Positions 5,733-59,096 are shown, numbered from the stretch's first letter. The stretch is DNA of 64,000 bases from Patescibacteria group bacterium (GCA_022709735.1 JAKLIG010000003.1:70384-134383); one strand, 5' to 3'. The notes: generated by a model from the letters alone, not told the origin. Translations and numbers: made by a program.

Positions 5733-5742
5733 ATTTTTTTTA

Positions 5743-5760
5743 ATCCCGCCAAGGCGGGAT
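5743..5760 (-). other. GC-rich hairpin (ATCCCGCC AA GGCGGGAT) in the greA leader, between the predicted promoter and the ATG
   Basis: The complementarity is perfect. It lies 10 nt upstream of the greA ATG and downstream of the TTGACA/TACAAT promoter. Confidence 0.45.
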
Positions 5761-5785
5761 GAATTTTAGTTAAACAATAAAACCA

Positions 5786-5813
5786 ATTGTACCAGAAAAA
5801 AAATTTCTGTCAA
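5786..5813 (-). promoter_or_regulatory. sigma70-like promoter for greA (TTGACA-16 nt-TACAAT on the minus strand)
   Basis: The minus strand reads TTGACAgaaattttttttctggTACAAT. The -35 hexamer is a perfect consensus and the -10 matches 5 of 6 positions. It sits between the mrdA stop and the greA start. Confidence 0.5.
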
Positions 5814-5820
5814 ACTATAA

Positions 5821-12718: not shown

Positions 12719-12793
12719 ATGAAAAATTTACAATTTTCAATTTACAATTTTCAATTTATTGTAAATTGATCATTGGTTATTGAAAATTAAATT

Positions 12794-15211: not shown

Positions 15212-15703
15212 TTAATTAAGCCTTTTTCGAATAAGATAAACGAAAATAATTGGAATAATTAGCCAAAAGAAGTGAAACTCGGAAGAAACCAAGTATTTAT
15301 AAGCGTTTTCGGAAATGTAGCCGAGCGCTATTTTTTTAGGTAAAATTGAAAGAATAACACTTAGAAGCATTACTACTTCCAAAAAACTAACCGTGAAAAT
15401 TCGCCACAAAAATTGGGATCCGGAAATATAAACGCCAAAAATTCGTTTGCTAAAAATTGTAAATAAAATTAAAAGAATAAGGAAAAAAATCAACTCATAA
15501 GAATAATCCTTGAGATAATTTCCGGGAAAAGCCTCGAGAAGCGCCAGCGATATATAAGCGCTCATGAGAACTGCAATGAGTCGGCCACGACCAACCAAAA
15601 ATGCAAAAGCAACTGTTAGCAAAATTATAACTATCAAAAGAGAAAAGTCTTGCATGAAACTTGGCGAGATGCCTATTTTTGAAAAAAGTTCAATAAAGTT
15701 CAT
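15212..15703 (-). CDS. hypothetical membrane protein
   Basis: 163 aa with 4-5 predicted TM helices. Confidence 0.5.
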   Translation of the reverse strand: MNFIELFSKIGISPSFMQDFSLLIVIILLTVAFAFLVGRGRLIAVLMSAYISLALLEAFPGNYLKDYSYELIFFLILLILFTIFSKRIFGVYISGSQFLWRIFTVSFLEVVMLLSVILSILPKKIALGYISENAYKYLVSSEFHFFWLIIPIIFVYLIRKRLN

Positions 15704-15757
15704 ATGATTTTTATTTTAGTTTTTAATCTACGTTATTTATAGTATCAAGTATTTTAT

Positions 15758-15937
15758 CCCGCCCTTGCGAAATAGAAAGTCATAAATTAAAGTTTGCGAG
15801 TGTAAAAAATTTACTCATTATTATCCTAAGGGGAGTTTAGTAAATTTAACGAGCAAACTGAAAATTTATCTTTCTATGAGCCTGGGCGGCCTTTTTCTTT
15901 TCTGCCACTTTTCTTTTGGGAAAAGAAAAGTGGCGAA
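15758..15937. repeat. structured intergenic element, copy 1 (candidate sRNA or cis-regulatory element)
   Basis: It matches 35249-35427: CCCGCCCT, then AAAAATTTACTCATTA-TATCCTAAGGGGAGTTTAGTAAATTT (hairpin 1), then CTGGGCGGCC, then the 31-nt hairpin GCCACTTTTCTTTTGGGAAAAGAAAAGTGGC. Confidence 0.5.
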
Positions 15938-18975: not shown

Positions 18976-19016
18976 ATTTTTTATTTAAAAAAATTATATT
19001 TTCTTCTCCTTACTGA

Positions 19017-19046
19017 CATTCTCACATTCTGCAGAATATGAGAATG
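19017..19046. promoter_or_regulatory. 30-bp palindrome CATTCTCACATTCTGCAGAATATGAGAATG (candidate operator), copy A
   Basis: It is a near-perfect dyad with one mismatch pair, centred on CTGCAG, 41 bp upstream of the methyltransferase ATG. A second copy lies at 49075-49104. Confidence 0.5.
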
Positions 19047-22614: not shown

Positions 22615-22735
22615 AGTTTTACAATAATTTTTAAATTTTTAATTTTTGAATTTTTAAATAAATCCAAATTTTAAATTTTTAAAAATTAGAAATTAAATAT
22701 TATTTATAAAATTAAAAATTACAAAATTAAAAATT

Positions 22736-24385: not shown

Positions 24386-24406
24386 AAGTTTATTATAATC
24401 TATCCT

Positions 24407-24433
24407 TTAGCACTCGTCAAGAGTGAGTGCTAA
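24407..24433. promoter_or_regulatory. CIRCE operator (perfect consensus) upstream of hrcA-grpE-dnaK
   Basis: TTAGCACTC-GTCAAGAGT-GAGTGCTAA. Confidence 0.85.
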
Positions 24434-24614
24434 TTGTATTTTAGCAGATTGGTTTGGAGTGTCAAATATTCAAAAATTGGCAAATAAAAAAGGACCTAAA
24501 CGATGTAGATCCAATTATTTTACATATGTCTTTTGTTTGTAGTCAAAACAGAAAAAACTGAAATTATATTTTCCTCAAGATTATTCTTTCATCAACTTAT
24601 AAAATTATAAACAG

Positions 24615-27153: not shown

Positions 27154-27246
27154 AGTATTTCTTTACGAATTACTAATCACTTACTAATATACGAATGTAA
27201 GAATTTTTTATTAGTATATTCGTACAAAATTAGTAATTAGTAAAGA

Positions 27247-28017: not shown

Positions 28018-28021
28018 AATG

Positions 28022-28083
28022 TTTTACGAAATACAAAAAGGGAGTTTAAATGTTTCGTAGTTCGTTCATTTCGTAGTTCGTAA
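28022..28083. repeat. short, inverted-orientation variant of the ~88-bp TACGAA/TTCGTA TIR element family
   Basis: The sequence TTTTACGAAATAC...AAAAAGGGAGTTTAAATGTTTCGTA...TTTCGTAGTTCGTAA fills the ftsE-prfB spacer. Confidence 0.5.
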
Positions 28084-28094
28084 TTTATTATAAA

Positions 28095-29184
28095 CTATTT
28101 CTTAATATACTTCAAATAGCTTTCCATAAAATCATTTAGATTTCCCTCCAAAACCCATTCCGCCTGGGCTGTTTCGTATTTTGTCCTATGATCTTTGACC
28201 ATTTTATAAGGGTGAAGGACATAAGAACGGATTTGGCTTCCCCACTCGGCGCTTAATTGTTCGCCACGAATTTTTCTTTTTTCTTCTTCGGCTTCTTCCA
28301 GATATTTTTTATGAAGCTTCGCTTTCAAAATTTTCATTGCTTGTTCTTTGTTTTGCAATTGCGATCTTTCATTTTGGCAAGTTGCTTGGATTCCGGTTGG
28401 AATATGCGTGATGCGAACTGCGCTGTCTGTCGTGTTCACACTTTGTCCGCCGGCGCCAGATGAGCGATAAACATCCACGCGAAGATCCTGGGGATTAATT
28501 TGCACTTCTTTTATTTCCGGAATTACCGGCATAATTTCCACTAGTGCAAAAGAAGTTTGACGAAGATTATCTGCATTGTATGGCGACAACCTAACAAGCC
28601 GGTGTACTCCCGCTTCGCTTTTGAGATATCCATAAGCATATGCGCCAGAAACTTCTATTGTTACATTTTTTATTCCAGCTTCTTGACCACGAGTTTCATC
28701 TAAAATTCTCGCTTTAAAATTATATATTTGCGCCCACTTGAGATACATTCGAAGAAGCATCTCTGACCAGTCTTGCGCGTCCACTCCGCCGGCTCCACTC
28801 ATGATCGTGATAATCGCGTCATTTCTGTCATAATCTTCGGAAAAAAGCGTTTTGAATTCTAAAGCATTGATATTTTCCTCTACTTTTTTAATTTCTTTTT
28901 CGAGTTCAGCAATATCTTTTTTGCTTTCTGAAATTTCCGCCAATTCTTTTAAATTTTCAAGCTTTTTTTCTAATTCATCTATTTCCTCAATTTCTTTCTT
29001 TGTTTCTTCTAATTCTTTCATAATCTCTCCTGCTTTTTGCGAATCACTCCAAAAATTTTCCTTAGCCGTTTCTTTTTCCAGTTCTTTTATTCTTTTTTCT
29101 TTTTTCGGTAAGTCAAAGATAGTCCCGAATAGTCGGGAGTTTATTTTTTAGCTCTTCGATTCTTTGTAAGGTTTCTTTTGGCAT
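28095..29184 (-). CDS. prfB: peptide chain release factor 2, with a programmed +1 ribosomal frameshift
   Basis: Frame 0 reads MPKETLQRIEELKNKLPTIRDYL and ends at the CTT TGA C shift site (plus-strand 29112-29118). The +1 frame continues DLPKKEKRIKEL... into the long ORF carrying GGQ and the RF2-type domain. Confidence 0.85.
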
Positions 29185-29241
29185 TACTATTTATTCGAAT
29201 CATTCGAGTGTTAATTCGCAACATTCGAGTCGCGTTAATAA

Positions 29242-34438: not shown

Positions 34439-34552
34439 GAAAATTTTGTAATTTTGTAATTTTATAATTTTTAAATAATTTCTAATGCTAAAATTTTTAA
34501 ACATTGAAAAATAAGATTCATTTATAAAATTAAAAATTAAAAAATTAAAAAA

Positions 34553-35137
34553 TTAAATTGTATCGTACGCCTTTTCTATCGCCAAAATATTTTTATCACA
34601 AGCTTCTTTTCCTATTTTTTTCTCAAAAATTTCCCGGAATTCTTCTATCACGCTTTCGAGCTTTACTATTCCTGAAACTTTCACAAATTTTCCTAAAATC
34701 ACCGTATTGGGCCGAGGCGCTCCGATAATTTTCATGGATATTCCGCTAGCATCCACCGGATAAATTTTCCCAGAAAAATTACCTCCCCTTTCCATCATTT
34801 TTTCCCGCACTTTATGCTCCGGCATTTGGGTGTTTATTATTAAAAATTCATTTTTGTCTAAATTAAAAGCCACTTCCTGCGAATCCAAAAGAGTGTCATC
34901 AAGAACAACCACAAGATCCGGATCAACTACCGGCTCATGAGTGCGAATTTCACTATCTGAAATTCGAAGATAAGTTTTTGTCGGTGCGCCAGATCGCTCG
35001 GGTCCAAAACTCGGGAAAGCCTGGACGAATTTATTTTCAAATAAAGCCGACTGCGCTAAAATTTCCGCAGTAGTTTTTGCGCCCTGCCCTCCGCGGGCAA
35101 AAAAAATAACTTCAAAAATGTCTTTATGATACTTCAT
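34553..35137 (-). CDS. porG: pyruvate:ferredoxin oxidoreductase gamma subunit
   Basis: The ARGGQGAKT motif of POR gamma is present. Confidence 0.85.
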   Translation of the reverse strand: MKYHKDIFEVIFFARGGQGAKTTAEILAQSALFENKFVQAFPSFGPERSGAPTKTYLRISDSEIRTHEPVVDPDLVVVLDDTLLDSQEVAFNLDKNEFLIINTQMPEHKVREKMMERGGNFSGKIYPVDASGISMKIIGAPRPNTVILGKFVKVSGIVKLESVIEEFREIFEKKIGKEACDKNILAIEKAYDTI

Positions 35138-35248
35138 GTTATTCTTTACTAATTACTAATCAAATACTGGCGTACTGGTTTAAAAATCGACTTTAATATT
35201 ATAGCATAATAATTCAAAAACTAAAAAATTTGATTTTTTGCATTTAAA

Positions 35249-35427
35249 CCCGCCCTATAAAATAAAGCACTATAAATTGAGATTTTCTAGCGTTAAAAAT
35301 TTACTCATTAATATCCTAAGGGGAGTTTAGTAAATTTAGCGAGAAAATCGAAAATTTATTTCTTTATTTTATCTGGGCGGCCTTTTTTCTTTCTGCCACT
35401 TTCTTTTTGGGAAAAAGAAAGTGGCGA
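35249..35427. repeat. structured intergenic element, copy 2 (candidate sRNA or cis-regulatory element)
   Basis: It matches copy 1 at 15758-15937. The long hairpin here reads GCCACTTTCTTTTTGGGAAAAAGAAAGTGGC, with two compensatory base-pair swaps relative to copy 1. Confidence 0.5.
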
Positions 35428-35495
35428 ATAATTAAACAAAAAAACAACCTCTTTTCCAGAGATTGTTTTTGAAATAACGCTTTATTCTTACTTCT

Positions 35496-41508: not shown

Positions 41509-42243
41509 TTATTTCAAAATAGTTTCCCCGTCTTGCGCGATTCTTCTGTTTTTTACCGGATCATCCGCCACAATTTCTCCGTCTTTCATATAAAGAATTC
41601 TTTTGGCGTGTTCAGCGGTATAAGTTTCATGTGTTACCAAAATAATCGTGTGCCCTTCATCATTTAATTTTTGAAGAATTTTCATTACTTGCAGTCCCGA
41701 TTTTGAATCCAAGTTTCCAGTCGGTTCATCGGCAAAAATAATTTCCGGATTGTTGACCAGCGCTCTGGCAATCGCCACCCTTTGTTTTTCTCCGCCAGAA
41801 AGTTGATTGGAAAGATATTTCTCACGATGTTCCATGCCGACAGATTTCAAAGCATGCATCACTTTTTCCTGATTGATTCCATCTGGCTCCTGGTCATAAA
41901 GAAGAGGAAGCTCAACATTTTCAAAAACAGAAGTTCTTGGCAGAAGATTGAATGATTGAAAAACAAAACCGATTTTTTTGTTTCTAACTTTTGCCAAAGT
42001 ATCATCGCTAAATTTAGCCGCATCCTTTCCTTCGAGCAAATATTTTCCTTCTGTCGGACGATCAAGTAACCCAAGAACCTGCATTAAAGTTGATTTTCCG
42101 CTACCGCTCGGCCCCATAATCGAAAGAAATTCCCCCTTCTCCACGACAAAATTCGCTCCGCAAAGCGCCGGAGTTTTCACACCTTCATTTTCATAAACCA
42201 TACAAAGATTTTTAACCTGGATTAAAGACATAATTACATCCAA
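41509..42243 (-). CDS. ABC transporter ATP-binding protein (MacB/LolD-type)
   Basis: Walker [10 protein letters not shown], the signature LSGGEKQRV and Walker [13 protein letters not shown] are present. The true start is probably Met5 (42231). Confidence 0.9.
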
Positions 42244-42782
42244 ATATTTTCAACATTATTTCTGTCCTGTTCCCAATTTTTCGGATTATTTAGAATATAT
42301 TCACGGATTTTGTTCAACGATATTTCATTTCGGATGATATGGTCGTAAAAAGATTTTTGCCATATCGTAGGGAACGCGTATACGCGTTCCTTTTTATTAT
42401 TTTTATCATATCCGTTTTCCATTCGCGTTACAGCAGCTTTGAAGCCCTGGACAATTTTTGATAATAACATTTTTGTTCTATTGGTATTTTTGGAACGCAT
42501 ATATGCGTTCCCTACATTAATATTGAAATTTATTTCAATAATTCCGTGAACATGATTCGGCATTATGACATATTGATCTAAATATATATTATCAAAATGT
42601 TTAGGGATTTCTAAATAACATTTTTGAACAATTTTCCCTAATTCATTCAAAATCATTTTTCCATTTTTTATTCCACCAAACAATTCTTCCCTATTTTTCG
42701 TGCAAATTGTCACAAAATACATCCCGTTCTGGGAATAATCGTAATTTTGCAAACGATTGTTTTTTCTATTTTTTAATTCCAT
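42234..42782 (-). CDS. REP-associated tyrosine transposase (RAYT) / IS200-like HuH Y1 transposase homolog
   Basis: It has the HuH motif MPNHVHGII, the conserved IWQKSFYDHIIRNE (compare E. coli RAYT IWQPRFWEHAIRNT) and a catalytic-Tyr region REYILNNP. It is embedded between the HlyD-like gene and the ABC ATPase gene. Confidence 0.8.
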   Translation of the reverse strand: MELKNRKNNRLQNYDYSQNGMYFVTICTKNREELFGGIKNGKMILNELGKIVQKCYLEIPKHFDNIYLDQYVIMPNHVHGIIEINFNINVGNAYMRSKNTNRTKMLLSKIVQGFKAAVTRMENGYDKNNKKERVYAFPTIWQKSFYDHIIRNEISLNKIREYILNNPKNWEQDRNNVENIWM

Positions 42783-43780: not shown

Positions 43781-43787
43781 AAATGCC

Positions 43788-43900
43788 TGTCATTGCGAGG
43801 GAGCGTAGCGACCGTGGCAATCTCGGACTTTAATACGCCAGACTCGAAATTTTATTTATGATTTTAATTGCGAGATTGCTTCGCTTTGCTCGCAATGACA
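43788..43900. repeat. intergenic imperfect inverted repeat (TGTCATTGCGAG...CTCGCAATGACA)
   Basis: Arms of about 37 nt with matching ends (GTCATTGCGAG / CTCGCAATGAC) flank a 45-nt AT-rich loop. It fills the rnhA-HlyD spacer. Confidence 0.45.
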
Positions 43901-43904
43901 TACT

Positions 43905-44333: not shown

Positions 44334-44506
44334 AAAGAATTTTTAATTTTTGAATTTTTAATTTTGTAAATAAATTTTAATTTTTAATTTCTAAACTTTA
44401 TTTTATCGGTTGGTTTAAAAATTTAGATTTAAGATTTATTTCAAAAATTATAAAATTAAAAATTGTAAAAATTTTATTTACTACCATATGTAAGCGAATG
44501 GTAGTA

Positions 44507-46225: not shown

Positions 46226-46313
46226 ATTTTAAAATTAAATTAGGGGGTAGTTCCCCTAACTTTTCGTATTTCGTTAATTTCGCCTGCCTGCCGGTAGGCA
46301 AGGTAGTTCGTAA

Positions 46314-46874
46314 TTAATTACATCTAGGACAGACAAATTTTGCCGTAAATTCTTTCTTGTCCACATTAGAAACTTCTAAATTCAATATCATTTCGCCTAG
46401 ACAGCTTGGGCATTGAAATTTTTCACCAAAATAAAAATCTTTCGCTAATTTTGGCGCGTCTATTTCTTCCGCATTGAATTTCAAATGATATTTTAGAGAT
46501 CCAAAAATATTACGCACTCTTTCCACTACTTGTCTCGGCGTAACCATGCCTTGAACTATAAAATCTTTTACTCCCAAGCTTTCTGCTTTTTGCCGATCTT
46601 CTTCCCGCCCCATATGCGAAAGCATTACCACTGGAATATTGGCAGTATTTACATTTTTCGCCAAAGCTTCCTTCAGAGAAAAACCATCCATTTTCGGCAT
46701 AATAATTCCAGTAAAAATGATATCTGGAATTATTTCCATAGCCTTATTCATACCTTCGAGCCCGTCAATCGCTTCGATTACTTCAAATCCTTCATTGCGA
46801 AAAATATCCGCATATGTTCCGCGAATTATTTCATCATCATCAATAACCAAAATTTTAACTTTTTTGTCTTCCAT
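46314..46874 (-). CDS. response-regulator receiver domain protein with a C-terminal Cys4 zinc ribbon
   Basis: It has a REC domain (DDDE.., phospho-acceptor D in IIMPKMDG, conserved K) and C-terminal CPSC...CPRC. Confidence 0.7.
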   Translation of the reverse strand: MEDKKVKILVIDDDEIIRGTYADIFRNEGFEVIEAIDGLEGMNKAMEIIPDIIFTGIIMPKMDGFSLKEALAKNVNTANIPVVMLSHMGREEDRQKAESLGVKDFIVQGMVTPRQVVERVRNIFGSLKYHLKFNAEEIDAPKLAKDFYFGEKFQCPSCLGEMILNLEVSNVDKKEFTAKFVCPRCN

Positions 46875-46881
46875 AATTATA

Positions 46882-46970
46882 TTTACGAACTACGAAACGA
46901 CCGAATTACGAAACGCTTAAGCCACCCTTTCGTACTTTCGTATTTCGTATTTTTTTCGTATTTCGTAAAA
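46882..46970. repeat. ~88-bp TIR-bounded intergenic element (TTTACGAACTACGAAA ... TTTCGTATTTCGTAAAAC)
   Basis: It is one of three full-length copies and exactly fills the spacer between the acs stop and the response-regulator start. Confidence 0.6.
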
Positions 46971-46971
46971 C

Positions 46972-49029
46972 TTAAATAATTATTTTAACATCCACGGCAG
47001 TCGCCTCCTGACCATTATTATAAACAAATAGCGGGTTTATATCAAACTCGCAAATTTCCGGAATTTCCAGCGATAGCGCGCCAATTCCCATAAGAATTCT
47101 GGCTGTTTCTTCCAAATTATATTTCCTTTGCCCGCGAACGCCTTGGAATAAAAATTTAATTTTTCCTTCTGTCAAAGATTTTTCCGTTTCACCTAAATTC
47201 AACGGTGGCACAAGATAGTCCACTGTTTTCAGAAATTCCGCATAAATTCCACCCAAACCATAAACCACGACCGGTCCAAAAATTTCATCTTTTTTTATCC
47301 CAACTATAAGTTCCATTCCTTTTTCTGCCATTGGTTGGATTATAAATTTGCTTCCCGGAAAGCTTGTATGCATTCTGGATATAGCCTTAGAAAGTTCTGA
47401 TTCATCTTTGATGCCCAAAATCAAACCATTCTTATCGGTTTTATGCAAAATTTTGTCGCTATCAATTTTGAGTGCCACTGGATACCGAAAAGTTCTTTCC
47501 CGATAATTTTGAATTTCAAAACTTTCCACTGTAGAAATTCCGTATAATTTCATAACCTCCGCGCTTTCTTCAAAATATAGCGCTTGGCGATTTTCTGATT
47601 TGGCACGCTTTATTATTTCTAAAACTTTTTCTTGCCTTTTTTTATTGATTATCTGTGCTTCGCTTTTTATTTTTAAATTCTTAGATTCGCTCCATTTATA
47701 ATATTCGTCAATCGCCAAAACTGCGCTGTCAGGAAAATTAAAATTACATATTCCACTTTGTTTTAGCTTTGCAATTCCCTTTTCCACTTTCTCTCCGCCC
47801 AAAAAAACTGTCGAAATTATCTTGTCAGTTTTTTCTTTGAATTTTATTATCTCCGAAGCAATTTTAAGAACTGGCGTTTGCTCTTGTGGAGTAAGCAGAC
47901 AAATGACTGAACCGATTTCTTCGACTTTGGAAATTATTTCCAAAACATTTCTGTATCGATCAGCTGTGGCGTCACCCAAAAGATCAATCGGATTTTCCAC
48001 TGATGATTCCAGCGGAAGAATTTCTCGCAATTTATTTTTTGTTTCTTCGTCAAAATTTGCCATCTGTATATTTTTTCCAGAAAAAGCATCAGAAGCCAAA
48101 ACTCCCGCTCCGCCGGCGTTCGTTATAACCGCCACTTTTTGGTTGGGGAATGTTTCAGAAAAACTAATAAGACTTAGTAGATTGAAAAATTCTCCCAAAT
48201 TTTCTGCCCGAATTATTCCAGCTTTTTTTAAAACTGCCGAAACAATTTCGTCATCGCCGGCAAGCGCCCCAGTATGCGAGCTGATGGCTTTTTGCGTTTT
48301 TTCATTTTTTCCCGCCTTGAGAATAACCACTGGCTTAACACGAGAGACATTTCCAACAATTTCAACAAATTTTTTTCCACCTTTTATTCCTTCAAGATAC
48401 ATTCCAATCACTTTCGTATTTTCGTCTTTCGCTAAATATTCGAGCATTTCTTCTTCCGCAATTTGCATTTTGTTCCCGACAGAAACAATGTTGGAAAATT
48501 TCAATCCTTCTTTTTTTGCTTTGTCCATAAGCGCTACCGCGAGAGCTCCCGATTGCGAAACAAAAGAAATGTTTCCGGCTTCCGGCATCCCGCCGGCAAA
48601 AGAAGCGTTGAGCTTGAGGCTTGGAATAATAAATCCCAAACAATTCGGTCCCAAAATATTCAAATCATTTTCTTTGGCAATTTTCGCCAAGTCTTCTTCC
48701 TGCTTTCTTCCTTCTTTGCCAATTTCAGAAAACCCCGCCGAAATCACAATATAGTTTTTTATTTTTTCGGCATTGTTTTTTATTTCTTGATTTACAAACT
48801 TCGCCGGTATGGCAATAATCGCCAAATCAACTTCTTTTTCAATTTCATTTAAAGATTTATGACATTTCTTCCCAAAAATTTCATCGTATTTCGGATTCAC
48901 TAAAAAAACTTCGCCTTGATATCCAAGCTCGATTATATTTTTTGCAATCACATTGCCAATCTTGCCTTCTTCTGATGAAGCCCCGACAACCGCGATTGAT
49001 TTAGGATTAAAAAGTTTTTCTAAGTTCAT
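46972..49029 (-). CDS. acetyl-CoA synthetase (ADP-forming), fused alpha/beta subunits
   Basis: It has an N-terminal CoA-binding domain (IAVVGASSEEGKIGN), succinyl-CoA-synthetase-like domains and a C-terminal ATP-grasp. The product is 685 aa. Confidence 0.8.
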   Translation of the reverse strand: MNLEKLFNPKSIAVVGASSEEGKIGNVIAKNIIELGYQGEVFLVNPKYDEIFGKKCHKSLNEIEKEVDLAIIAIPAKFVNQEIKNNAEKIKNYIVISAGFSEIGKEGRKQEEDLAKIAKENDLNILGPNCLGFIIPSLKLNASFAGGMPEAGNISFVSQSGALAVALMDKAKKEGLKFSNIVSVGNKMQIAEEEMLEYLAKDENTKVIGMYLEGIKGGKKFVEIVGNVSRVKPVVILKAGKNEKTQKAISSHTGALAGDDEIVSAVLKKAGIIRAENLGEFFNLLSLISFSETFPNQKVAVITNAGGAGVLASDAFSGKNIQMANFDEETKNKLREILPLESSVENPIDLLGDATADRYRNVLEIISKVEEIGSVICLLTPQEQTPVLKIASEIIKFKEKTDKIISTVFLGGEKVEKGIAKLKQSGICNFNFPDSAVLAIDEYYKWSESKNLKIKSEAQIINKKRQEKVLEIIKRAKSENRQALYFEESAEVMKLYGISTVESFEIQNYRERTFRYPVALKIDSDKILHKTDKNGLILGIKDESELSKAISRMHTSFPGSKFIIQPMAEKGMELIVGIKKDEIFGPVVVYGLGGIYAEFLKTVDYLVPPLNLGETEKSLTEGKIKFLFQGVRGQRKYNLEETARILMGIGALSLEIPEICEFDINPLFVYNNGQEATAVDVKIII

Positions 49030-49074
49030 CTTTTTGTTTTAATTTATTTTCTATAACAATTACTAGCCTATTAA

Positions 49075-49104
49075 CATTCTCATATTCTGCAGAATGTGAG
49101 AATG
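49075..49104. promoter_or_regulatory. 30-bp palindrome CATTCTCATATTCTGCAGAATGTGAGAATG (candidate operator), copy B
   Basis: It is the exact reverse complement of copy A (19017-19046) and lies 45 bp upstream of the acs ATG. Confidence 0.5.
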
Positions 49105-49112
49105 TTCTTTTT

Positions 49113-51681: not shown

Positions 51682-51810
51682 ATAATAAATTTTCAATTTA
51701 CAATAATCAATTTTCAACCAATTATCAATTCTCAATTATTTAGTTTTGTAAATTGAAAATTATCTCATTGAAAATTCATTGTAAATTGTAAATTGATAAT
51801 TGAAAATTTT

Positions 51811-53867: not shown

Positions 53868-54959
53868 CTAATCCATTAAACAAAGAACACCTGGCATTTT
53901 TCCTCCCGCTAAATATTCAAGCATCGCTCCTCCACCAGTCGAAACAAAACTTATCCTATCCATTGCATTATTTTTTTCCAAAATTTCCAGCGTTTCTCCT
54001 CCGCCGACTACTGTGTATGCGCCGGATGCTAAAACAGATTTCAATATTTCATTGGAACTAACGGCATATTTTTCTTCTTCAAATTTTCCAGTCGGCCCGT
54101 TCCAAACAATTGTTTTAGCGCTAGAAATTATTTCTTTGAATTTTTTGAGCGTTTCTGGTCCGATATCCAAACGGCTTGCCCCGTGGTCCGACGCAAAGTC
54201 GGACTTTACGGGGTCATCTACAAAATCAAAAGGCAAAATTACTTTCTCACTAAATTGCGTTTTTTGGTCTAGCGCTTCATTGGCAATTTTCCCGCCGACT
54301 AAAATATAGTCGTATTTTTCTTCAAAAAATTTAATCACCGGCAATTTCGTTTCAATTTTCGCACCACCGATGATTGCCACTGCCGGACGCGCAAAATCAT
54401 TTTTTATTTTTTCCATCTCTGAAACTTCTTTTTGCATTAAAAGTCCAGCATAGCTTGGAATAAATTTTGGTATGCCAGCAATTGAAGCTTGATTTCTATG
54501 TGATTGACTAAATGCATCATTAACAAAAATATCAAAATTCTCCGCTAATTTTTTGGCAAATTCTTCATCATATTCTTTCCCTGTTTCAACATCACCTTCG
54601 CCCGGATAAAATCTGACATTTTCCAAAAGCGCTATTTCTCCATCCTTTAATTTATCCATTGCTTCTGCAACTTTTTCCCCAATACAATCCGAAACAAAAA
54701 TTATTTTATAGCCTAAAATATTTTCAACATCATCCTTTATCTGACTGACAGAGAATTTCATATCTCTTTCTCCTTTTGGACGTCCAAGCCAAGTCATCAA
54801 AGCCACTTTAGCTTTTTTATTCATGAGATAATCAGTTGCTTCTTTTATTGTTTCAATTTTAAATTTTTCTTTAGCATGTCCGTCTTCGATTGAAACATCT
54901 ACTCCAACGCGAAAAATTACTTTTTTATTTTCGACGCTAGTATCTTGTATCTTTCTCAT
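53868..54959 (-). CDS. pgk: phosphoglycerate kinase
   Basis: It has the PGK N-domain and C-domain signatures (GGGAMLEYLAGGKMPGV). A surface-loop codon stretch is encoded by a GC-rich hairpin cassette (see findings). Confidence 0.9.
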   Translation of the reverse strand: MRKIQDTSVENKKVIFRVGVDVSIEDGHAKEKFKIETIKEATDYLMNKKAKVALMTWLGRPKGERDMKFSVSQIKDDVENILGYKIIFVSDCIGEKVAEAMDKLKDGEIALLENVRFYPGEGDVETGKEYDEEFAKKLAENFDIFVNDAFSQSHRNQASIAGIPKFIPSYAGLLMQKEVSEMEKIKNDFARPAVAIIGGAKIETKLPVIKFFEEKYDYILVGGKIANEALDQKTQFSEKVILPFDFVDDPVKSDFASDHGASRLDIGPETLKKFKEIISSAKTIVWNGPTGKFEEEKYAVSSNEILKSVLASGAYTVVGGGETLEILEKNNAMDRISFVSTGGGAMLEYLAGGKMPGVLCLMD

Positions 54960-54968
54960 AATTCTTTA

Positions 54969-55055
54969 TTTACGAACTACGAAATTAGCGAAATACGAAA
55001 CATTTAAACTCCTTTTTCGTACTTTCGTATTTAGTATTTATTTCGTAGTTCGTAA
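54969..55055. repeat. ~88-bp TIR-bounded intergenic element
   Basis: TTTACGAACTACGAAAT...TTTCGTAGTTCGTAA fills the spacer between the mraY stop and the pgk start. Confidence 0.6.
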
Positions 55056-55061
55056 TGTAAT

Positions 55062-56171
55062 TTAATGAAAATGTTTTCCTGCTCCTAAAATTCCAACGAT
55101 CACCCCAATCATAGCGGTAATTGCCGTAAATATCCAAAATCGCATTGTTACTTTAGTTTCCGGCCAGCCAATAGCTTCAAAATGATGATGAATCGGCGTG
55201 GATAAAAATATTTTTCTTTTAAAAAACTTCTTACTAGTAAGCTGAATTGCCACCGAGCCGGATTCAATAACATAAATAAAAACAATGATGAGCAAAACTA
55301 GAGCGGAATTAGTAAGCATTGCGACTATTCCCAAAGTTATTCCAAGCGACACTGCTCCAGTGTCTCCCATGAAAAATCTGGCCGGATAAACATTGAACCA
55401 AAGAAAAGCCAAGAGTGCGCCGGCAATGGCTGCACAAAAAGAAGCCAGATCCATTTTATTTTGGGAAAAGGAAATCAGCGTGAATGATCCAAATGCCATA
55501 AGCAACACTCCGCCATTAAGGCCGTCCAGCCCGTCTGTTTCATTGGAAGAAATGGCCGTGAAAAGAATAATAAAAATAAAAAGCGGGATATACCAAAGTC
55601 CGATGGAAAAATCACCCATCGCCGGAATATGAATTTTGTCCCAGCCTAATTTATAATAAAACCACCAGGCGCCAAGAATTGAAATCACAATTAACCAGCC
55701 GAAGCGCGCCAAAAATCTCATTCCGCCTCCCTTATTTTTTCCAATTCCTCGAACACTCATATAATCATCGCAAAGACCGAGAACTCCGGCCGACAAAAGT
55801 GCAAAAAGCGGAAGCCAGGTTTGTGACCGGCTAAAAAAATCAAGTCGAGCGATAAAATCAGTCTTGAAAAATTGAGCGATATAATGAAAAAGATAATGGG
55901 AAGCAAAAATCAAAATAGCTATTGAAAACCAAATTAAAACTCCGCCCATAATCGGCGTGCCGGATTTGTGTCGATGGAGATTATTGACATAAGTAAGTTT
56001 TTCTCCGTCAACAGATTTTTCTTTTATTTTTATTCCGATTTTATATTTATAAAGTATGTGCGTCCAAAGCGGAGTCAAAGCAAATGCTAAAACAAAAGCT
56101 AAAAAACCAGTAGTAAGAATTTTCATCACATTTATGACATCGGGGATAGTTTGTATTTGAGAGATATTCAT
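55062..56171 (-). CDS. mraY: phospho-N-acetylmuramoyl-pentapeptide transferase
   Basis: It has 10 predicted TM helices, the cytoplasmic-loop motif GLCDDYMSV and PIHHHFEAIGW. Confidence 0.8.
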   Translation of the reverse strand: MNISQIQTIPDVINVMKILTTGFLAFVLAFALTPLWTHILYKYKIGIKIKEKSVDGEKLTYVNNLHRHKSGTPIMGGVLIWFSIAILIFASHYLFHYIAQFFKTDFIARLDFFSRSQTWLPLFALLSAGVLGLCDDYMSVRGIGKNKGGGMRFLARFGWLIVISILGAWWFYYKLGWDKIHIPAMGDFSIGLWYIPLFIFIILFTAISSNETDGLDGLNGGVLLMAFGSFTLISFSQNKMDLASFCAAIAGALLAFLWFNVYPARFFMGDTGAVSLGITLGIVAMLTNSALVLLIIVFIYVIESGSVAIQLTSKKFFKRKIFLSTPIHHHFEAIGWPETKVTMRFWIFTAITAMIGVIVGILGAGKHFH

Positions 56172-57783: not shown

Positions 57784-58488
57784 TTAATTATTTTTTAAGT
57801 TTAGTTTTATTTCTTGGAATAAATCAGCTTGCTCTACTTCCACTATCCTTTGTTTTATCATTTCAAGCATTGCAAGAAAAGATACAATTACCTCCGCTTT
57901 ATCCTGGGCTTTTCCCACCAAATCAGAAAAGGATGATTGGATTTTTTCGCGCAAGAAATTTTCCAGTTCGCTTATTTTCTCTTCCAGCGTCACTACTTCA
58001 CTCACTATCTCTTCAGACAATTTTTCCAGAATCGGAATTTCGCTAAGAATTGAAAGAAAATGTTTTTTGAAATCATAAATATTAAAGTCTTCCGGCGGAT
58101 AAAAAATAGATTTTACTCCCCCGAAACCTTCTCGAGAATAGCAAATTTTTCCTCTTCCGGCAATTTTTCCAAGATTTATTGAGACCTCCTTGAATTTTTT
58201 ATATTCTTCCAGTTGTTTGGCCAAATCCTGGATTTCTTCCTCCTCTTCTTCACTGAATTTCAGCATTGGGAGAAGCGCCCGAGATTTTATAAGAATAAGC
58301 CGTGATGCGACTGACAAAAAATCAGCCAAATTTTCCAGATTAATATTCTGGTTGCTTTTTATATATTCCAAATATTCATTGGCTACTTTGGAAAGGCTAA
58401 GTTCCGTGATTTCTAATTTTTCTTTTTGAATTAGTTCCAGAAGCAATTCCATCGGGCCCTCGAATTTGTCAGTTCTAACCTGATACAT
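57784..58488 (-). CDS. scpA: segregation and condensation protein A
   Basis: The N-terminus FEGPMELLLELIQKEKLEI is typical of ScpA. Confidence 0.8.
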   Translation of the reverse strand: MYQVRTDKFEGPMELLLELIQKEKLEITELSLSKVANEYLEYIKSNQNINLENLADFLSVASRLILIKSRALLPMLKFSEEEEEEIQDLAKQLEEYKKFKEVSINLGKIAGRGKICYSREGFGGVKSIFYPPEDFNIYDFKKHFLSILSEIPILEKLSEEIVSEVVTLEEKISELENFLREKIQSSFSDLVGKAQDKAEVIVSFLAMLEMIKQRIVEVEQADLFQEIKLNLKNN

Positions 58489-58509
58489 ACTGTTTGGTTA
58501 ATTATCTAA

Positions 58510-58598
58510 TTTACGAACTACGAAATGAGCAAACTACGAAACATTCGAACTTCCTTTTCGTATTTTCGTATTTCGTATTTTTTTCGTAGTTCGTAAAA
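58510..58598. repeat. ~88-bp TIR-bounded intergenic element
   Basis: TTTACGAACTACGAAATGAGCAAACTACGAAAC...TTTCGTATTTTTTTCGTAGTTCGTAAAAC fills the spacer between the 58599 stop and the scpA start. Confidence 0.6.
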
Positions 58599-59096
58599 CT
58601 ATTTCTTTTTGCTAAAACTTCCCTTGACCACTTCCTCTTTTTTTATATATTCACTGGTATTAATCAAAATTGATTCCGTATATTCTCCTGATCCGGTATA
58701 AATTTTCTTGTTTTTGAGAAGCAGACTGTCGGCAAAAATATCTAATTTTATAAGACCGCGAAATGGCGGAGTAGCGCCGACTTTTCCTTCTAAATTCTTT
58801 TTCATCCAAACTTCTTTGGCAAAATCAATTTTTTTGCTGTTTTTTAAGCCCTGCTTTTTCCTTTGCGCATTAATGAGTTTCAATAATTTCTGCTTGTCTA
58901 AATTCCTGTTTCCCGGTATTAGCGCTAAAACATAATTATTATCCGCTTTCATAACCAAAGCTTTCGCCACCATTTTTGGATCAATTTTTTCCGTCTGCGC
59001 CGTGTCCCAAGCTGTGAAGGTTTTTTTATGATCAATGATATTATATTTATATTTTTTCTCTTCTAAATATTTTTGGATTTTTTTAGAAATAGCCAT
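58599..59096 (-). CDS. YbaK/ProX-family aminoacyl-tRNA deacylase
   Basis: 165 aa with YbaK-like conserved Lys and GxxxG-type residues. Confidence 0.6.
   Translation of the reverse strand: MAISKKIQKYLEEKKYKYNIIDHKKTFTAWDTAQTEKIDPKMVAKALVMKADNNYVLALIPGNRNLDKQKLLKLINAQRKKQGLKNSKKIDFAKEVWMKKNLEGKVGATPPFRGLIKLDIFADSLLLKNKKIYTGSGEYTESILINTSEYIKKEEVVKGSFSKKK

Follow-up and report, generated by a model that had tools for sequence, protein, structure and literature searches.

The window analyzed here is a 64,000-nt stretch of DNA (GCA_022709735.1, JAKLIG010000003.1:70384-134383) from a contig of Candidatus Moranbacteria, uncultured bacteria of very small size that belong to the candidate phyla radiation (CPR). 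Several of the spacers between its genes are occupied by a family of short foldback elements whose arms are built from TACGAAA heptads. The original prediction described these as intergenic fillers resembling either hairpin-forming doublets of repetitive extragenic palindromes (REPs), known as REPINs, or miniature inverted-repeat transposable elements (MITEs). In our analysis, the window was found to contain three copies of 86 nt as well as a truncated inverted copy, a remnant and a member of a sister family. The flanking genes are all minus-strand open reading frames (ORFs), and each copy begins 1 to 3 nt past a stop codon and ends a few nucleotides ahead of the next ATG. The copies are listed below, with folding free energies (dG) in kcal/mol.

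46883..46968, minus strand: full 86-nt copy of the short-loop type, gene-sense, from the stop of an acs-like gene (46972-49029) to the ATG of a response-regulator gene (46314-46874), in spacer 46875-46971; nhmmer 93 bits; dG -26.8, z -3.1.
54970..55055, minus strand: full 86-nt copy with loop GGAGTTTAAATG, gene-sense, from a mraY-like gene (55062-56171) to pgk (53868-54959), in spacer 54960-55061; nhmmer 87 bits; dG -28.2, z -5.0.
58511..58596, minus strand: full 86-nt copy with perfect 16-nt terminal repeats, gene-sense, from a ybaK-like editing-domain gene (58599-59096) to scpA (57784-58488), in spacer 58489-58598; nhmmer 91 bits; dG -30.9, z -5.1.
28024..28083, plus strand: 60-nt truncated copy covering model positions 31-90; it is antisense to the genes and fills the prfB/ftsE spacer (28018-28094); nhmmer 44 bits.
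46262..46313, minus strand: remnant with the left arm only (TTACGAACTAC...CGAAATTAACGAAATACGAAAAG) in the response-regulator/recJ spacer; a nested 21-nt GC-rich mini-palindrome (46283-46303) splits it between TTCG and TA.
27154..27246, minus strand: sister-family palindrome of TTACTAAT/ATTAGTAA units with the same TTTACGAA...TTCGTAAAG ends, filling the ftsE/ftsX spacer; dG -24.5, z -5.2.

A repeat search grouped the three full copies as one 92-nt family with 80 to 85% identity. The 16-mer TTTACGAACTACGAAA, allowing up to 3 mismatches, occurs 14 times in the window compared with 1.1 expected, a count reached in 0 of 100 shuffles. The predicted full copies at 46882, 54969 and 58510 were thus borne out, each with an 86-nt core bounded by TTACGAA...TTCGTAA, as was the filling of spacers between minus-strand genes at the acs-like, mraY-like, ybaK-like and prfB junctions. 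The shorter inverted copy reported at 28022-28083 also is real; it is truncated and lies in the opposite orientation. Other details needed correction. The terminal repeats, described as exact reverse complements, are so in the 58510 copy, and the other two carry one mismatch each (TTTCGTATTTCGTAA where the 46882 copy ends, and ATTACGAAC at one end of the 54969 copy). A T7 tract ascribed to the copies is present in two of the three. Of the two supposed degenerate relatives, 46262-46313 is indeed a left-arm remnant; 27154-27246 instead belongs to a sister family of TTACTAAT units, which falls under the nhmmer threshold for the TACGAAA family and is found again at L044 3955-4045 (retrieved loci are cited by their L numbers). 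On the gene-sense strand, all three full copies are predicted to fold into a stable hairpin (-26.8 to -30.9 kcal/mol; z = -3.1 to -5.1), a check that the original prediction had proposed.

A consensus was drawn from 46 aligned copies and is written in the commoner, gene-sense orientation: T-TTACGAA(C/A)TACGAAA-T(T/A)AA-TAC(T/G)AAA-TACGAAA-(G/A)-TACGAAAA - loop - GTTTCGTA-TTTCG(C/T)T-NA-TTTCGTA-(G/T)-TTCGTAA-AT. The unit, T-TTACGAA...TTCGTAA-AT, has asymmetric arms, with five TACGAAA heptads facing four TTTCGTA heptads, and the fifth heptad of the longer arm gives rise to a conserved internal loop. Heptads are spaced 7, 8 or 11 nt apart within the arms. A short loop (approximately GGAGTTTAAATG) yields the 86-nt core, and a long loop (AATAAAATTAAATACGAAAATATATCTAAAA) yields a core of 104 to 106 nt. 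RNAalifold analysis of the aligned copies predicted 26 pairs, and no covariation was seen among them in the 46-copy alignment, because the arms are nearly invariant. The state of a G/A position that is able to form a G.U pair is independent of the transcribed orientation. The outer arms contain CTAC and GTAG (the latter 7 nt inside the right arm), the conservation of which is imposed in part by the search pattern; that pattern fixes the outer arms and leaves the inner arms free, yet the inner arms are equally conserved. Orthologous copies in distant genomes differ by 5 to 8% in the inner arms and by 42% in the loop. The corresponding figures are 4 to 9% and 52% for paralogues within one genome and 6 to 10% and 54% for nonorthologous copies between genomes. 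Part of the arm conservation is detection bias, since diverged and half copies exist (L088; L002 3306-3382 and 2895-2957; L086).

Two other interpretations of the sequence were considered and rejected. The loop GGAGTTTAAATG resembles a ribosome-binding site and start for a mini-ORF (MFRISLIS*), but an ATG, GTG or TTG is present in only ~54% of the 46 copies, and 28% of copies are antisense. A DNA-uptake sequence was dismissed, as 21 of the 29 TACGAAA sites of the window fall inside elements, with no excess elsewhere.

Species-representative genomes were scanned once for TACGAACTACGAAA-N40-70-TTTCGTAKTTCGTA, and loci of 8 to 21 kb were retrieved. The scan returned at least 80 loci in at least 17 other metagenome-assembled genomes (MAGs), almost all of them Moranbacteria or Parcubacteria with 35 to 44% GC, so that the family extends beyond the window, as a genome-wide search had been proposed to establish. 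Single 8-kb loci often hold several copies, and nhmmer identified 123 places in the window and scan loci, nearly all intergenic. For an unbiased sample, 80 loci (965 kb in total) were fetched via pgk, independently of the element; here, the TACGAAA family was patchy, occurring in 7 of the 80. No Rfam family matched the element at gathering or E-value thresholds, and nothing relevant was found in the published literature on repeats, REPINs, MITEs or palindromes of CPR, Moranbacteria, Patescibacteria or Parcubacteria.

The position of the elements relative to genes was assessed for 57 copies with distinct flanks that lie between codirectional genes. Forty-one copies are in the sense orientation and 16 are antisense (72:28; binomial P = 0.0013, for copies that are not phylogenetically independent). 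The stop triplet nearest to the core lies a median of 2 to 3 nt upstream. The median distance from the core to the first ATG is 6.5 nt for sense and 10 nt for antisense copies, the typical range from core end to ATG being ~2 to 11 nt. One example is the spc ribosomal-protein operon (L14, L24, L5, S8, L6, L18, S5, L15, secY, adk, map), which is represented in two genomes by loci L044 and L074. In both, almost every junction carries a copy, all of them sense. This argues that the elements are not strong terminators and suggests that they are transcribed within the operon.

Copies with unrelated flanks share up to 97.7% identity over their full length, loop included, both within and between genomes. 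Examples are the pairs L020_3791/L074_1762, L055_1959/L065_6664 (same genome) and L055_1959/L002_3938 (another genome). Turnover is evident between the genomes MFSE (RIFOXYA12_FULL_35_19) and PCRW (CG23 35_22), in which coding DNA is ~95% identical and divergence jumps at junctions only. At L24/L5, one of the two has the element and the other has a 19-nt spacer that keeps a TTCGTAA footprint; more distant genomes have an unrelated 20-nt spacer at this junction. At S8/L6, L15/secY, secY/adk and two junctions around a conserved noncoding block, the filler is replaced within the same boundaries by another heptad family (TACAAAA, TTACTAAT or TACAAAT/GCGAAT). Heptad number also varies between orthologues, as at L6/L18 (93 versus 109 nt). 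Gain, loss and family exchange therefore occur while coding DNA diverges by only ~5%. Inspection of two junctions of the window in its relatives gave a similar picture, as follows.

mraY/pgk, L088 and L089: short spacer.
mraY/pgk, L086: half an element.
mraY/pgk, other loci: arrays of TACGAAT, TACAAAT, TTTCAAT, AAAGTTAAAAGTT or CACGTAA.
ybaK/scpA, L085: same element, split by a nested GC-rich palindrome.
ybaK/scpA, L088: element diverged in place, with the same 3' flank.
ybaK/scpA, L087, L095-97, L110 and L118: other families.
ybaK/scpA, seven lineages: empty, with stop and start adjacent (TAA/ATG).

Orthologous sites thus are empty, half filled or filled by other families. According to the original prediction, identical sequence at every orthologous site would have indicated conserved regulatory DNA; the differences among relatives favor turnover over fixed regulatory DNA. 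The element reads as mobile, duplicating DNA akin to a REPIN or MITE. Its heptad-array arms, clade-wide sharing, strict stop/start placement, colonization of ribosomal operons and exchange with other families are unusual features. On balance, and with modest confidence, we lean toward regarding it as one family of nonautonomous foldback elements that spread by duplication and are restricted to Candidatus Moranbacteria and its close relatives.

The TACGAAA element is one well-conserved family within a superfamily of heptad-array foldback fillers. Spacer lengths at 1,280 codirectional junctions, drawn from all loci, have a bimodal distribution that peaks at 0 to 20 nt and again at 80 to 120 nt. 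The unbiased loci contain 218 spacers of 60 to 160 nt, of which 37% fold with z < -3 and 29% form a single hairpin over at least 70% of the spacer; base autocorrelation of these spacers peaks at lags of 7 to 8. The filler families include TACGAAT, TACAAAA, TTACTAAT, CACTGAT, GCAAAT, TTTCAAT, TTCTAAT and AAATTAAAAATT, among others. Across all hairpin fillers, a median of 2 to 3 nt is left unpaired after the stop codon and a median of 8 nt before the ATG. Some junctions (e.g., L094 and L105) hold nothing but direct arrays.

A trans-acting enzyme, recognizing either the heptad arms or the hairpin, may copy the TACGAAA element with no target-site duplication; transposition of the single-strand HUH type would be compatible with this lack of duplication and with the 72:28 strand bias. 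Because the elements have no promoter and no terminator tail and lie inside operons, we infer that they would be transcribed together with neighboring genes as intercistronic hairpins. Folding back in the mRNA would then bring the upstream stop and the downstream start within ~10 nt of each other and leave an unpaired A-rich leader of ~8 nt. In that case, only foldback elements would persist at tight junctions, the ancestral state of which would be TAA/ATG. The hairpin also may protect the 3' end of the mRNA, process it or punctuate it, in parallel to proposals made for Correia and ERIC elements (PMC2229807).

Several observations weigh against an interpretation as mobile DNA. No target-site duplication was apparent in 75 copies with distinct flanks, as direct repeats of k = 2 to 6 were no commoner than with shuffled flank partners. 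Four close genome pairs yielded no clean empty site: empty and filled alleles also differ in the adjoining bases, and nothing beyond footprints, half-elements and family swaps was seen. The 640 kb surrounding the copies contained neither an autonomous partner nor a multicopy transposase that could be found, and there was no match to the element in viral contigs, phage records or plasmids. The arms evolve ~8 times more slowly than the loops, even at the same locus in distant genomes, and paralogues within a genome are no more alike than copies from different genomes, with no sign of genome-specific bursts. Both the arm conservation and the paralogue distances could reflect host-level constraint on the heptads. 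Finally, the RNA hairpin and translational coupling steps of the proposed mechanism are ones that we infer.

The original prediction linked the elements to a gene at 42234 for a REP-associated tyrosine transposase (RAYT). The minus strand at 42234-42782 does encode a RAYT-like Y1 protein with an HUH motif (HVH), which scores 69 bits against NCBIfam REP_Tyr_transpos, under the cut-off of 80 (E = 4e-19). The gene is situated inside a macA/macB-like operon and overlaps both neighbors. In none of six loci (the window, L053, L164, L166, L167 and L168) does an element lie beside the RAYT-like gene. The L053 homologue, with 47% identity, is adjoined by a GC-rich GTAGAGACGCCCC...GGGGCGTCTCTAC hairpin of the GTAG...CTAC type. 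The remaining homologues (58 to 84% identity) have no flanking repeats and occupy four different gene contexts.

L164 6001-6546: RAYT-like homologue with a 4-nt overlap with the upstream gene.
L166 6001-6531: RAYT-like homologue with a 4-nt overlap with the upstream gene.
L167 4618-5157: RAYT-like homologue with a 4-nt overlap with the upstream gene.
L168 6001-6516: RAYT-like homologue with a 3-nt gap.

This suggests that the RAYT-like gene, unlike classical RAYTs, relocates itself. The predicted link between element and RAYT therefore was not supported, given the absence of a flanking element in the window and the five homologous loci and a score below the cut-off. Nor was the argument from a REP-like CTAC...GTAG tetranucleotide, since the arms are direct heptad arrays and not GTAG-tagged short palindromes. 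What stands of the mobile REPIN proposal is a dispersed MITE/REPIN-like family that fills gene junctions.

These results bear on whether the elements are REPINs proper, that is, REP doublets mobilized by the single-copy RAYT-like tyrosine transposase at 42234-42782. REPs are described as short imperfect palindromes of 20 to 40 bp, most (not all) of which bear a GTAG or CGTC tag at one end (PMC3733652). REPINs are ~89-bp hairpins in which the REP arms are 94 to 98% conserved and every spacer is different (PMC3337134). An 86-nt core with arms diverging by 4 to 10% and loops by 42 to 54% conforms to this size and population structure. An HUH/Y protein of RAYT type is encoded, the 41:16 strand bias and the lack of target-site duplication count in favor of REPINs, and the outer arms contain CTAC and GTAG, albeit with a conservation that was forced in part by the search pattern. 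However, the arms consist of direct, AT-rich heptads that lack an internal dyad and are not GC-rich short palindromes tagged at one end, and the RAYT-like gene is not flanked by its own REPs at any of the six loci, so that REPIN membership fails on two defining features. Moreover, the RAYT-like protein lies below the curated cut-off, the gene contexts differ among genomes and include 4-nt upstream overlaps, unlike those of a vertically fixed RAYT, and GC-rich palindromes (the GTAG...CTAC hairpin at L053 and the CCCGCCTCG... family) are better REP candidates. We therefore regard a REPIN in the strict sense as doubtful. The alternative offered by the original prediction, of a promoter or attenuator module, and likewise that of a bidirectional terminator, fared worse and is the least probable of the explanations considered here. 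Strong hairpins do directly precede start codons, and a sigma-70-like TTGATA-17-TATAAT sequence is located ~45 nt upstream of the 46883 copy, within the acs-like gene. Among the best 60 of 82 sigma-70-like sites (-35/-10, 16- to 18-nt spacing), however, none on the minus strand falls within 46881-46972, 54968-55059 or 58509-58600 or reads out of the elements, and the canonical TGnTATAAT promoters of relatives look quite different. The features of an intrinsic terminator also are lacking: the stems are AT-rich, only 2 of 57 copies have at least 5 T residues within 8 nt after the hairpin, only 2 of the 123 nhmmer sites lie between convergent genes, and nearly every junction of the spc operon is occupied.

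The slow evolution of the arms would be accounted for if the element were a cis-acting site of the host, kept by selection and not mobility, with heptads that bind a clade-specific RNA- or DNA-binding protein or a hairpin that is a needed signal for mRNA processing, stability or translation. Such a role is consistent with the conservation of the primary sequence of the arms (26 essentially invariant predicted pairs, no compensatory covariation and ~8 times less divergence than the loops at orthologous sites). It also is consistent with a location ahead of essential genes and in ribosomal-protein operons, in a genome whose spacers have no Shine-Dalgarno motif, and with the parallel to the TAACTGA heptamers of Beggiatoaceae, which are proposed to be sites for a posttranscriptional regulator (PMC4679880). 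Stop/start placement, too, is fixed in both orientations and in all families. Against such a role, 28% of the copies are antisense, and these retain a G that would form a C.A mismatch once transcribed. Close relatives can have the same junction empty or occupied by an unrelated family without apparent harm, the distribution of the family among relatives is patchy, and several families coexist in one genome. We consider purely host-level maintenance unlikely. A further explanation needs neither mobility nor function: heptanucleotide slippage in place, followed by palindrome formation, with similarity between sites arising via ectopic gene conversion. Heptanucleotide repeats are reported to be the most abundant long simple repeats in prokaryotes and have been attributed to slippage (PMC4679880). 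The autocorrelation peak at lags of 7 to 8, the variable heptad count at L6/L18 (93 versus 109 nt), the occurrence of direct arrays alone at some junctions (e.g., L094 and L105) and the sharing of one architecture by many sequence families all are in keeping with this. Slippage cannot, however, yield an 86-nt unit that recurs at unrelated junctions in different genomes with the same 5+4 layout, linkers and loop, and conversion needs a homology that the flanks lack; a local origin accordingly is very unlikely.

A broader proposal combines spread with use by the host. The heptad-array foldbacks may constitute an undescribed, clade-wide and junction-specific class of CPR DNA that the host uses as intercistronic RNA punctuation, the heptads being read by a modular protein that coevolves with each family and drives cassette-like exchange. 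We offer this tentatively, as possible but on the unlikely side. If true, RNA punctuation would govern how mRNA is processed, how stable its 3' end is or how stop and start codons are coupled, in genomes that have no Shine-Dalgarno motif.

CPR/Patescibacteria genomes usually are described as streamlined and repeat poor. Here, about one-third of codirectional junctions have spacers of 60 to 160 nt, and 29 to 62% of those are single heptad-periodic hairpins, so that a large share of the scarce noncoding DNA consists of foldback repeats that turn over rapidly. If purely selfish, nonautonomous elements of this kind show how mobile DNA can colonize tightly coupled operons harmlessly by folding away. 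If used by the host, they would represent a general gene expression signal in these organisms. They also provide markers at the strain level and are likely to cause contig breaks in Moranbacteria MAGs.

We also noted GC-rich mini-palindromes nested in the heptad elements. A palindrome of 42 to 45 nt (CCCGCCTCGCGTCGAC...GAGTCGAGGCGGG) is inserted at TA/CG of the heptads, without duplication, in 9 of 10 copies. Its presence or absence is clean and reciprocal between the 95% identical genomes MFSE and PCRW (L021 5169-5210 versus L071 422-511; L071, minus strand, versus L021 170-263), and it is therefore a recently active, target-specific mini-element that parasitizes the heptad elements. Further loci are L006, L020, L046, L047, L080 and L085 (5798-5839). 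In the window, the 21-nt mini-palindrome at 46283-46303 is different in sequence and occupies the same TTCG/TA position. Another GC-rich palindrome, 124 nt in length (ATGTCATTGCGAGC...GCTCCCTCGCAATGACAGGCAT), lies at 43781-43904, upstream of the macA-like gene and ~1 kb from the RAYT-like gene; it is single copy in the window, and similar GTCATTGCGAGG...GGAATGAC hairpins are present in L102 and L104. We speculate that GC-rich palindromes are better candidate substrates for the RAYT-like protein than the TACGAAA family, and an activity that mobilizes small palindromes plausibly is present in these genomes.

Nearly all long ORFs of the window (1-64000) are on the minus strand, with a uniform GC skew of -0.12 to -0.22 and a GC content of 35 to 37%. 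The spacers have A/T-rich leaders and no Shine-Dalgarno motif, and canonical TTGACA-17-TATAAT promoters are seen at a few longer spacers (e.g., 24386-24614 and 5733-5820). Other intergenic families of the window share the heptad or octad architecture and include ATTGTAAATTGAAAATTG and CAATTTACAAT arrays, AAATTAAAAATT palindromes (three sites) and two copies of a CATTCTCACATTCTGCAGAATGTGAGAATG hairpin. These families, and other features seen in the same spacers or in relatives, are as follows.

12719-12793, 51736-51810, 22615-22735, 34454-34556, 44334-44506, 18976-19046 and 49030-49112: other intergenic families with heptad/octad architecture.
15753-15937 and 35243-35428, minus strand: paralogous noncoding blocks of ~190 nt, 77 to 89% identical, with conserved hairpins (GCCACTTTTCTTTTCCCAAAAGAAAAGTGGC; GGCCGCCC...), upstream of genes 15212-15703 and 34553-35137, respectively.
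29022-29241, minus strand: start of prfB, with an ORF running from ATGCCAAAAGAA into TAT CTT TGA C, the classical +1 programmed frameshift site of release factor 2 (RF2).
L020 2895-3300 and L068 3547-3976: conserved noncoding block of ~250 nt (ACCGTGCGACAAAAGGCACTAGCGCC...) between heptad palindromes.

The ~190-nt blocks have no Rfam match and may be an undescribed leader or small RNA. The ~250-nt block probably is a structured RNA gene; two genomes that are 95% identical have palindromes of different families on either side of it. Given the RF2 frameshift site, the listed prfB ORF (28095-29021) is without its N terminus, and direct heptads of the CGAAT type lie ahead of the prfB ATG.

Similar architectures are known elsewhere. 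Eukaryotic Foldback (FB) elements have long inverted arms composed of short tandem subrepeats in variable number, and most copies are noncoding; they are kilobase sized and make target-site duplications, and their likeness to the heptad elements is one of architecture only. The STRR heptamers of cyanobacteria are another example of intergenic heptanucleotide repeats. Integron attC sites, imperfect palindromes that follow each mobile gene cassette and have the core consensus RYYYAAC/GTTRRRY, were rejected as a model: the genes flanking the elements are core and syntenic (pgk, mraY, scpA and those for ribosomal proteins), and the ends, GTAAAAC/GTTTTAC, miss that consensus at two positions each.

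The REPINs of Pseudomonas fluorescens SBW25 (PMC3337134, PMC3116915) resemble the TACGAAA family in being noncoding hairpins (~86 to 89 nt) with two inverted arms, which are highly conserved and enclose a spacer that differs in nearly every copy. In both, dozens or more copies are extragenic, there is no target-site duplication, and the genome carries a RAYT or RAYT-like gene. The elements described here differ in that their arms are AT-rich arrays of direct 7-nt repeats and not GC-rich imperfect palindromes tagged with GTAG or CGTC, in that the RAYT-like gene has no flanking element at 6 of 6 loci, in that one sequence type is common to many species of 35 to 44% GC, and in that copies give way to other families while the junction boundaries stay fixed. 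Bacterial MITEs (Correia/NEMIS, ERIC, RUP and RPE; PMC2229807) also are <200 bp, AT rich and noncoding. They have terminal inverted repeats with TA-containing ends, are cotranscribed with their neighbors into RNA that folds as one long stem-loop, and vary in presence between relatives. Unlike MITEs, the TACGAAA elements show no target-site duplication and strict stop/start placement; 640 kb around the copies and viral, phage and plasmid collections yielded no parent insertion sequence that shares their ends, and their inverted repeats span the whole element and are internally heptad repetitive. The TAACTGA repeats of Beggiatoaceae, Cyanobacteria and Bacteroidetes (PMC4679880) share a 7-nt unit, present 2 to 6 times just upstream of start codons, and are found in ribosomal-protein operons, at genes without a ribosome-binding site and in a patchy phylogeny with no evident vector. 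Those repeats are direct (169 direct sets versus one inverted in the Beggiatoa genome), whereas here each array is matched by a complementary array to form a hairpin and it is the entire 86-nt element that recurs. With regard to heptads and start codons, the TAACTGA repeats are the closest published analogue.

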